DNA of 64,000 nucleotides from Escherichia coli. GTDB taxonomy: Bacteria; Pseudomonadota; Gammaproteobacteria; Enterobacterales; Enterobacteriaceae. Below are positions 58,641 through 59,543 of this stretch, in pieces. The stretch lies in assembly GCF_017348835.2 (NCBI RefSeq), contig NZ_CP071375.1. The stretch is one strand, 5' to 3'. How positions within the stretch are numbered: position 1 is the first letter of the stretch; the number at the start of each line of letters is the position of its first letter. Position numbers and translations under genes: made by a program. Below the pieces are notes generated by a model. It had not been told where the DNA came from and did no database searches. It saw only the letters and a list, made by a program, of their open reading frames with translations.

Positions 58641-59543
58641 TTACTTAGCGCACTTCTTCACATCAATATTCCAGTCAGCACCAGACGCAACCTGATGTTT
58701 CTGCGCGAAATTATCCATATTCAGCGCCACGGAAACATTCAATAAGCTGTTCAGATAGACCATCGGCTGGCCTTCCGGCACATCGCCGAAGCTTGCGACA
58801 TACGGCATTTTCCCTGCGTATTTTTGCCGGGAACCTTCGGAAATGGTCACACACAACGTGTCGTTGAGTTTGATCCCCGCCTGATTCAGCAACTCGTCGC
58901 TGATATTGCTCCAGACGTTGCCGTACTGAATATCGAGAATCGGGATATTGCCCTTCACTTCACCTTTTGTTGCTTTGGCTTTCTGATAAGAAAGTTCGAC
59001 AACTTTTGCAGGAAGCTCTGGCCCCACCTGTTCGAACGTGATCGCCCCGGAAGCCAGACGCGCACCGGTGTAGGCATACACATCACGACCGTGGAAGGTA
59101 TATGACTTTTCGGAACCTTTCAGGCGGTTGGTTTTTTCATCGATTTGCCGGACGCTCTCAATACCCAGCGATTCCGCCACCAAAGTGAGCGTACCGTTAT
59201 CTGGTGAAACGAAGTATTGACCGTTTTTGGTTTTCAGCACTACCGATTTACGGTCTGTACCAACACCAGGATCGACCACACTGACAAATACCGAACCTTG
59301 CGGCCAGTAACTGGCGGTCTGATACAGGCGGTAAGCGCCTTCCCAGATGTTATACGGTGGAATTTCGTGTGTTAAATCAAATATTTTAAGATTATGGTCA
59401 ACGCCGAAAGCGACCCCTTTCATCGCCGAGACGGCACCATCTTTCAGGCTAAAATCAGTTTGTAAAATCAAAGCGTTATCCGCATAAGCGGATGATGATC
59501 CCAGACACGTTAATAAAAATAACGTTGCGAGCGTTTTTTTCAT
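58641..59543 (-). CDS. Secreted SAM hydroxide adenosyltransferase-like protein (DUF62 / SalL-FlA family fold) with N-terminal signal peptide
   Basis: 300-aa ORF; signal peptide MKKTLATLFLLTCLGSSSAYA; family motifs TDFS..MKGV, DLTHEIPP, VVDPGVGT, SPDNG, YGNVWSNI, FGDVPEGQPMVYLNS recognised by eye. Confidence 0.75.
   Translation of the reverse strand: MKKTLATLFLLTCLGSSSAYADNALILQTDFSLKDGAVSAMKGVAFGVDHNLKIFDLTHEIPPYNIWEGAYRLYQTASYWPQGSVFVSVVDPGVGTDRKSVVLKTKNGQYFVSPDNGTLTLVAESLGIESVRQIDEKTNRLKGSEKSYTFHGRDVYAYTGARLASGAITFEQVGPELPAKVVELSYQKAKATKGEVKGNIPILDIQYGNVWSNISDELLNQAGIKLNDTLCVTISEGSRQKYAGKMPYVASFGDVPEGQPMVYLNSLLNVSVALNMDNFAQKHQVASGADWNIDVKKCAK

Follow-up and report, generated by a model that had tools for sequence, protein, structure and literature searches.

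A predicted secreted DUF62-family protein of Escherichia coli with a hydrolase-type catalytic triad and a close orthologue in Helicobacter pylori

Introduction

To our knowledge, S-adenosylmethionine (SAM) has been regarded as a cofactor found strictly inside cells, and the DUF62 enzymes studied so far are all either cytoplasmic SAM-repair hydrolases or halogenases. In the hydrolase branch an Asp-Arg-His triad (D68-R75-H127 in PH0463) activates water; the triad is strictly conserved in the hydrolases, which show no halogenase activity, and is restricted to them, whereas the halogenases lack it and use T80/S158 (FlA) or Y70/G131 (SalL) (PMC4859513, PMC10491745).

Here we describe a DUF62 gene of Escherichia coli located in a window of 64,000 nucleotides, this being the whole stretch of DNA that was analysed (contig NZ_CP071375.1 of RefSeq assembly GCF_017348835.2). 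An earlier note, made from the letters of the window only, had pointed out that its product combines the features of a SAM-type enzyme with a leader that would direct it to a compartment without SAM, and this puzzle turns out to be real. The gene is already annotated and its family known; the part that appears to be new is a predicted exported branch of the family, together with a Helicobacter pylori orthologue that is 89% identical.

Results

The gene and its surroundings

The features discussed in this work are collected in Table 1. The 300-residue, minus-strand open reading frame is present exactly as first described and its translation contains all of the motifs then quoted, namely TDFS (residues 29-32), MKGV (41-44), DLTHEIPP (56-63), VVDPGVGT (89-96), SPDNG (113-117), YGNVWSNI (207-214) and FGDVPEGQPMVYLNS (252-266). 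The placement between uvrD and yigE agrees with the RefSeq annotation of identical DNA, where the product (in E. coli PE164) carries the name 'SAM hydrolase/SAM-dependent halogenase family protein'.

Table 1. Features of the DUF62 locus, with positions in the window
Feature	Position	Strand	Basis or remark
uvrD	56424..58586	+	neighbour, as annotated by RefSeq on identical DNA
REP-like perfect palindrome (GCCGGATGCGGTG...CACCGCATCCGGC)	58601..58631	.	between the convergent stops of uvrD and the DUF62 gene
CDS, 300 aa, predicted exported DUF62 / SAM hydroxide adenosyltransferase-like	58641..59543	-	ORF (ATG start, 300 codons), Pfam, AF2/Foldseek, RefSeq
Codon C298 (KKCAK C-terminus), candidate disulfide partner of C231	58650..58652	-	co-occurrence
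Codon C231, candidate disulfide partner of C298	58851..58853	-	co-occurrence
Codon H151, triad His (= PH0463 H127; FHGRD)	59091..59093	-	52/58 homologues
Codon R98, triad Arg (= PH0463 R75; TDRK)	59250..59252	-	56/58 homologues
Codon D91, triad Asp (= PH0463 D68; VVDPGVG)	59271..59273	-	57/58 homologues
Sec-type signal peptide MKKTLATLFLLTCLGSSSAYA, codons 1-21	59481..59543	-	predicted signal-peptidase I cut after A21
Shine-Dalgarno-like GAAGGGA	59551..59557	-	7 nt 5' of ATG, by sequence inspection
yigE, phosphodiester glycosidase family, own signal peptide	59626..60390	-	82 nt upstream of the DUF62 gene, same strand

No terminator-like site was found between yigE and the DUF62 gene, which makes co-transcription of the two plausible. 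At the other end of the gene, the palindrome gives a weak naRNA4/REP-type Rfam match and is probably a bidirectional transcript end. The 82-nt spacer between yigE and the DUF62 gene yielded no convincing promoter; the nearest promoter-like site upstream lies within yigE.

The codon usage had been called native, and the composition is in line with this description: the gene has a GC content of 48.1% and a GC3 of 52.8%, slightly low (about one standard deviation under the mean of 58.9%, sd 5.3, of the genes in the window) but within range and equal to the GC3 of yigE. Recent acquisition by E. coli is, hence, not indicated by composition. None of the PADLOC defence-system models matched the DUF62 protein or YigE.

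Sequence family, fold and active site

As anticipated in the earlier note, the protein belongs to the PF01887 family. The SAM_HAT_N domain (PF01887) covers residues 26-174 with an E value of 4.8e-53, matching positions 2-145 of the 145 of the model, and is accompanied by the SAM_HAT_C domain (PF20257) at residues 198-291 (E 3.8e-18). Sequence matches in the PDB comprise 16 distinct entries, of which the T. maritima DUF62 protein (2zbu, 4.5e-44) ranks first, followed by the chlorinases ClA1 and SalL, MJ1651, PH0463 and the fluorinases. Identity to the solved members is 30-34%, and about 30% in the case of SalL.

An AlphaFold2 (AF2) model of the monomer, obtained with an alignment of 58 sequences as input, shows a mean pLDDT of 92.4 and superposes on T. 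maritima DUF62, SalL, FlA and PH0463. Foldseek returns E values down to 5e-32 and target-normalised TM scores of 0.80-0.91 against 2zbu, 7ccg, 6rz2, 1rqp and 1wu8.

Concerning the catalytic residues, the alignment to 2zbu and the offset of the alignment to 1wu8 (query 26 corresponds to chain position 3) map the triad onto Asp91, Arg98 and His151. SalL displays Tyr, Thr and Tyr at these columns, and its Tyr70 aligns with Val89. The ribose-binding Asp30, equivalent to D16 of FlA, is found in 58/58 homologues, N116-G117 and G152-R153-D154 are invariant across the same set, and the ligand motifs P114-D115-N116-G117, L-D-I-Q-Y-G-N (203-209) and N213 are kept. The comparison of the pocket with SalL and FlA that had been suggested, made here at the level of aligned residues, recovers the ribose Asp, PDNG and YGN, and finds the halide residues absent. 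A few exported members of the family show Phe or Tyr in place of the triad His.

The profile models of whole enzymes were less generous. The NCBIfam fluorinase model TIGR04507 scores 84.1 bits against a cut-off of 400, with a match limited to residues 107-291, and the top NCBIfam matches, the (R)-SAM hydrolase equivalogs NF058624 and NF053629, reach 131.8 (cut-off 350) and 114.6 (cut-off 470), far under their whole-protein cut-offs, so that identity of function with the (R)-SAM hydrolases is not established. Judged from these comparisons, the protein clearly belongs to the superfamily and is of the hydrolase type, without being an equivalog of any characterised enzyme. Of the two activities named in the earlier reading as a halogenase or hydroxide adenosyltransferase, the common fold and the hydrolase type hold, while the halogenase type is contradicted by the Asp-Arg-His triad and the low fluorinase score.

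A leader conserved across a broad clade

The N-terminus has the layout MKK, TLATLFLLTCLG, SSSAYA, with the predicted cut falling before the next residue, Asp22. Two lysines (K2, K3) make the n-region basic, the hydrophobic core is about 12 residues long and the c-region has A-Y-A at positions -3 to -1; neither a twin-Arg motif nor a lipobox is present. The predicted mature N-terminus reads DNALILQTDFS, and the Pfam domain starts 4 residues past the predicted cut. In the AF2 model residues 1-20 have pLDDT values of 56-61, the leader being modelled as a detached helix. The next in-frame Met is M41, and a start there would lose the first strand and Asp30, which makes a shorter cytoplasmic product not credible. 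A lipoprotein reading of the 'LLTC' stretch was considered and rejected, given the Thr at -1 and the lack of Cys13 in H. pylori SA213A.

Species representatives (one genome per species) were scanned, and the best 80 loci were retained, with 56-97% identity over the best aligned segment. These loci and those of H. pylori include 81 with a complete 5' end, and all 81 show a basic-plus-hydrophobic leader directly before the 'ALVxQTDFG' strand. They span Proteobacteria, Bacteroidota, Synergistetes, Fusobacteria and Tissierellia, and their common architecture places the DUF62 protein in a broad exported clade, whose members occur in E. coli pathotypes, Shigella, H. pylori, Aeromonas, Pasteurellaceae and many Bacteroidota. 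Of the 150 top-ranking representatives of clusters formed at 50% identity, 70 bear a leader (59 of the signal-peptidase I type and 11 of the lipobox type) and 46 are leaderless, starting 3-8 residues before the TDFG motif. Exported and leaderless relatives are told apart by 14 positions only, none of them catalytic.

Between E. coli and H. pylori, 13 of the 21 leader residues and 252 of the 279 residues of the mature part are identical; the leader is thus conserved as a feature while its sequence drifts, which is how signal peptides behave. The cleavable-type signal peptide proposed in the earlier note is consequently upheld, as a prediction, by its n/h/c layout and by the 81 loci. Its presentation as an oddity can be kept only in part, since the leader is there but is not peculiar to E. 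coli and defines a wide exported clade. We infer from these data that the protein is exported by the Sec route, which is well supported at the sequence level. No report on exported DUF62 proteins was found in the literature searched, and a conserved exported branch of the family appears to be undescribed in it.

A further character of the clade is a pair of cysteines, C231 and C298, which are both present in 39 of 80 orthologues, both absent in the other 41 and never found singly. The carriers are the proteobacterial members plus one Desulfobacterales MAG, forming one phylogenetic block; a periplasmic disulfide C231-C298 would produce this pattern.

Occurrence in Escherichia and in Helicobacter pylori

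Of 5426 complete E. coli genomes, 2413 (44%) carry the gene, practically always in intact form, the carriers including O157:H7, B2 strains (NC101, ATCC 25922, APEC O18) and BL21-derived strains; protein searches also retrieve it from Shigella. K-12 MG1655 and many other strains are without it. Alignment to MG1655 agrees with the earlier statement that K-12 has yigE only in the uvrD-corA interval: a 146 bp uvrD-yigE spacer of REP-type sequence stands in place of the gene, and the match to the window starts again precisely at the stop codon of yigE. The order corA-yigE-gene-uvrD is the same in Escherichia sp. MOD1-EC7003, a separate species representative, and no other genus of the Enterobacteriaceae appears among the best 80 loci of the species-representative scan. 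The gene had been taken for strain-variable accessory content; it is variable, but the term accessory needs qualifying in view of the shared site in MOD1-EC7003 and of the strong purifying selection described below.

After the sequences of E. coli and Shigella, proteins of H. pylori and H. acinonychis come next in their hundreds, 88-89% identical across all 300 residues. Outside Escherichia/Shigella, the closest relative is HP0709 of H. pylori, with 89% protein identity, signal peptide included. In complete H. pylori chromosomes HP0709 lies between rsmH/HP0708 and an outer-membrane-protein gene. Its DNA is 83% identical to the window, the similarity being confined to the ORF plus 7 nt, its G+C content is 44-45% against an H. 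pylori background of 38%, and a 154-nt direct repeat, made up of the promoter and 5' end of the downstream gene, flanks it. Neighbour joining places H. pylori as sister to Escherichia, within a clade formed with Aeromonas (73-76% identity), Thorsellia (70%), Pasteurellaceae (67-74%) and Neisseriales/Burkholderiales (67-75%). Comparison of the E. coli and H. pylori copies gives a dS of about 1.0 and a dN/dS of 0.06.

The elevated G+C of HP0709 and the low dN/dS together point to an inter-phylum transfer kept under selection. The sequences indicate that the gene would have entered the H. pylori lineage from a gammaproteobacterium near the Escherichia copy, or that both lineages would have received it from one unknown donor, in an event that was not recent yet took place long after the phyla had split. 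In both E. coli and H. pylori the gene is kept under strong purifying selection.

No function has been assigned to HP0709 in the literature searched. It is often auto-annotated (Prokka-type) as 'salL' or 'adenosyl-chloride synthase'. The protein has been found in the outer-membrane vesicle (OMV) proteome of H. pylori, which is weak evidence of export because OMV proteomes hold many cytoplasmic proteins. Patients make antibodies to it, as seen with a serology panel, and its D49N variant is a hit of a gastric-cancer GWAS. In biofilm cells of H. pylori SS1, 'salL' is up 2.9-fold and the methionine-transporter gene metI 2.2-fold.

Neighbouring genes and regulation

No conserved operon partner was found across the related loci. 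The genes alongside are housekeeping genes that change with the lineage: Pasteurellaceae have sbcB and RNase RNM there, Neisseriales have glgC and glgA, Aeromonas has GGDEF and MauG-like genes, and H. pylori has rsmH and the outer-membrane-protein gene. Nor were the neighbours informative in three metagenomic contexts. A functional link to yigE was considered and discarded, as a tblastn search with YigE over all fetched loci matches the Escherichia loci only.

The sole recurring partner is a family of TonB-dependent receptors of about 900-950 aa, encoded at nine Bacteroidota loci from several families. The receptor gene adjoins the DUF62 gene in co-directional arrangement, upstream in some loci and downstream in others, and at one locus (L081) the two are separated by an APC-family amino-acid permease. 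These receptors resemble BtuB in the plug domain only, and no cobalamin riboswitch was found at them.

With regard to regulation, no SAM, cobalamin or other riboswitch was detected in the window or in 25 related loci, and neither a MetJ box nor a PurR box was found near the DUF62 gene, so that a regulatory tie to methionine or purine supply is not apparent.

Discussion

Proposed function and alternatives

The model that we put forward, tentatively and as somewhat short of probable, is that of a periplasmic hydrolase that would split exogenous SAM for the salvage of methionine and adenosine. Removal of the 21-residue signal peptide would leave a mature protein (D22-K300) in the periplasm, which most likely assembles like its relatives. 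There, water activated by Asp91-Arg98-His151 would attack C5' of an adenosyl sulfonium compound in an SN2 reaction. Exogenous SAM, in either epimer, would be the likeliest substrate, with a related 5'-activated adenosine as a possible alternative. The products would be adenosine and L-methionine, both of them importable, while SAM itself cannot cross the inner membrane. The working logic might be like that of the periplasmic scavenging hydrolases UshA, CpdB and AphA.

Hydrolysis of exogenous SAM is the simplest model because the reaction calls for a good leaving group at C5', and the one that common metabolites offer is a sulfonium. We infer SAM as the substrate because the pocket motifs of SAM users are kept and no catalytic position splits the exported from the leaderless proteins. 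Both the linkage to a TonB receptor and permease in Bacteroidota and the retention of the gene in H. pylori, a bacterium that requires external methionine and purines, fit the salvage model.

It is also conceivable, though we consider it on the unlikely side, that the exported protein applies the same SN2 chemistry to another 5'-activated adenosine, in detoxification or processing; candidates are decarboxylated SAM, a 5'-sulfamoyl or 5'-halo adenosine antibiotic and an adenosyl natural product. Such a substrate would suit a protein whose export is well supported, free SAM being no recognised periplasmic metabolite, and whose clade is frequent among soil Bacteroidota and among other bacteria that encounter natural products. 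It would also suit the lack of any methionine- or SAM-linked regulation in the loci searched, and the change of the triad His to Phe or Tyr in a few exported members suggests some chemical diversity. Nevertheless, the SAM-user motifs remain in the pocket, no active-site position separates exported from leaderless members, and no resistance or biosynthetic genes are linked. Adenosylcobalamin in particular is disfavoured, as the linked TonB receptors come without a cobalamin riboswitch and their likeness to BtuB is that of the plug domain only.

The next possibility is that the leader is unused, or an artefact of annotation, and that the protein works in the cytoplasm as an (R)-SAM repair hydrolase like StDUF62, PH0463 and MJ1651. 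Indeed, all characterised hydrolases work in the cytoplasm, where they clear away the inactive (R)-epimer of SAM, and the two best NCBIfam models describe (R)-SAM hydrolases. The scores are, however, far under the equivalog cut-offs, the annotated ATG has a good Shine-Dalgarno sequence, and a restart at M41 would delete the first strand together with the ribose-binding Asp30. Moreover, the leader is found in 81/81 loci of several phyla, in some relatives as a lipoprotein-type leader, and truly leaderless relatives exist beside them, all of which renders a cytoplasmic role improbable.

A halogenase of the SalL/FlA type, converting SAM and chloride to 5'-chloro-5'-deoxyadenosine, would share the fold and about 30% identity with SalL and would match the Prokka-type name of HP0709, but is very improbable in view of a triad reported in hydrolases only and without halogenase activity, with D91/R98/H151 where SalL has Tyr, Thr and Tyr and Val89 in place of its Tyr70, of the fluorinase score of 84 against a cut-off of 400 and of the absence of downstream halometabolite genes. 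The probability left over after these readings belongs to functions that are not listed here.

Implications

An exported clade implies either that an extracellular pool of SAM or SAM-like adenosyl compounds is exploited, or that the fold serves a substrate as yet unknown. Extending the periplasmic salvage model, it can be speculated that the exported clade lets diderms harvest acid-stable extracellular SAM, for instance in the stomach, as a source of methionine and purine, that the gene, now near-core in H. pylori, was captured by its ancestor from an Escherichia-like gammaproteobacterium, and that this capture may underlie the reported association of HP0709 alleles with gastric cancer risk; we regard this larger scenario as doubtful, albeit worth stating.

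As K-12 is without the gene while BL21 derivatives and O157 carry it, isogenic comparisons are easy. HP0709 is immunogenic, occurs in OMVs and has been flagged by GWAS, so that learning what the E. coli protein does would also apply to an organism of clinical relevance. A final, practical point is that, since BL21 derivatives encode the homologue, hosts of the BL21 lineage in which recombinant SAM hydrolases are made may carry it as well.

Relation to described enzymes

The closest described systems are the DUF62 (R)-SAM hydrolases (PH0463, MJ1651, SaDUF62, StDUF62, SaciSAMH and 2zbu), with which the E. coli protein has in common both Pfam domains, the two-domain fold (TM 0.85-0.90), the Asp-Arg-His triad, the ribose-binding Asp, PxNG and DxxF/YGN. 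It differs from them by the predicted cleavable signal peptide, by the predicted periplasmic location, where their cytoplasmic role in SAM epimer repair cannot apply, and, like the other proteobacterial exported members, by the co-occurring Cys pair. Enzymes of the superfamily are homotrimers with active sites at the subunit interfaces; the model of the E. coli protein is that of a monomer. Destruction of SAM is also the activity of the phage T3-type SAMase (SAM lyase), which has an unrelated fold, acts as a lyase giving MTA and homoserine lactone, and is a cytoplasmic, anti-restriction enzyme (see PMC7877911).

The halogenases SalL, ClA1/ClA2 and FlA belong to the same superfamily, have the fold in common with the E. 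coli protein and perform SN2 adenosyl transfer from SAM; the E. coli protein, for its part, has no halide-pocket residues, no fluorinase-specific insertion and no linked biosynthetic cluster. In terms of physiology, UshA, CpdB and AphA are Sec-exported enzymes that convert a non-permeant adenosine compound into a transportable nucleoside and other products. Their folds are unrelated to that of the DUF62 protein, and they cleave a phosphoester, whereas a C5'-S cleavage is proposed here.

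Relationship with the Helicobacter pylori orthologue

The DUF62 gene (58641-59543, minus strand) shares 88-89% protein and 83% DNA identity with HP0709, its H. pylori orthologue, the signal peptide lying within the matched part, and in a neighbour-joining tree the Escherichia sequences are the sister group of HP0709. The two genes are separated by a dS of about 1.0, with a dN/dS of 0.06. A single 90% cluster holds 2579 member sequences, and in H. pylori the G+C content of HP0709 is 44-45% against a 38% background. HP0709 thus looks like an inter-phylum gene transfer, kept as a near-core gene of H. 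pylori. The orthologue is bracketed by a direct repeat that duplicates the start of the outer-membrane-protein gene lying downstream (its promoter and 5' end), and that is possibly the scar of the insertion.

Variation of the locus within E. coli

In K-12 (L001:1790-1925) the whole DUF62 gene is replaced by a 146-bp spacer, largely two REP-like copies, and homology with the window picks up again exactly at the yigE stop codon. Among the 2413 complete E. coli genomes carrying the gene, most have an allele 96-98% identical to that of the window and only 2 a copy at least 99% identical, and dS with respect to the O157 copy is 0.11; the window strain (PE164-like, a pig isolate) has a rather divergent allele or lineage.

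The neighbouring YigE, of the phosphodiester glycosidase family, has a signal-peptide-like N-terminus (MITLNLKRIFLALTLLPLFAVA|ADD), preceded in the annotated start by a 10-residue extension; yigE GC3 (51%) is below average and the same as that of the DUF62 gene. Further on, in the PE164 record, identical here, the annotation lists yigF (DUF2628) among the pseudogenes, its frame being interrupted by an internal stop, and O157 has DUF943 and DUF3289 genes in its position; therefore, the region downstream of corA is a second variable spot.

Features of the protein family

Concerning the mature protein, C231 and C298 co-occur perfectly in 80 orthologues (both in 39, neither in 41), a pattern that suggests a candidate disulfide, formed in the periplasm, for the proteobacterial members. 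The His of the Asp-Arg-His triad is replaced by Phe or Tyr in six homologues, L051, L078, L085 (Synergistetes), P0131, P0145 and P0147, all with a leader except the leaderless P0147; these may use another nucleophile or be inactive. As for genomic context, one TonB-dependent receptor family adjoins the exported-type DUF62 gene, in the same direction, at nine Bacteroidota loci.

Coordinates of features in the window and in comparison loci (L numbers; L003, H. pylori CP079055.1)
Feature	Position	Remark
REP-like perfect palindrome	58601-58631	between convergent stops of uvrD and DUF62 gene
C231 codon	58851-58853	DUF62 gene
C298 codon	58650-58652	DUF62 gene
yigE	59626-60390	
yigF	~61752-62130	
HP0709 orthologue	L003:8001-8903	further copies in L004-L006, L009
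154-nt direct repeat	L003:7835-7988, L003:9009-9162	87% identical; flanks HP0709 orthologue on both sides
TonB-dependent receptor genes	L046:3052-5901, L059:3004-5862, L069:64-2787, L070:2991-5921, L081:1373-4027, L053:4659-6683, L067:6909-9626, L075:6983-9718, L079:1946-4693	next to DUF62 gene, co-directional
APC-type amino-acid permease	L081:4111-5400	between receptor and DUF62 gene
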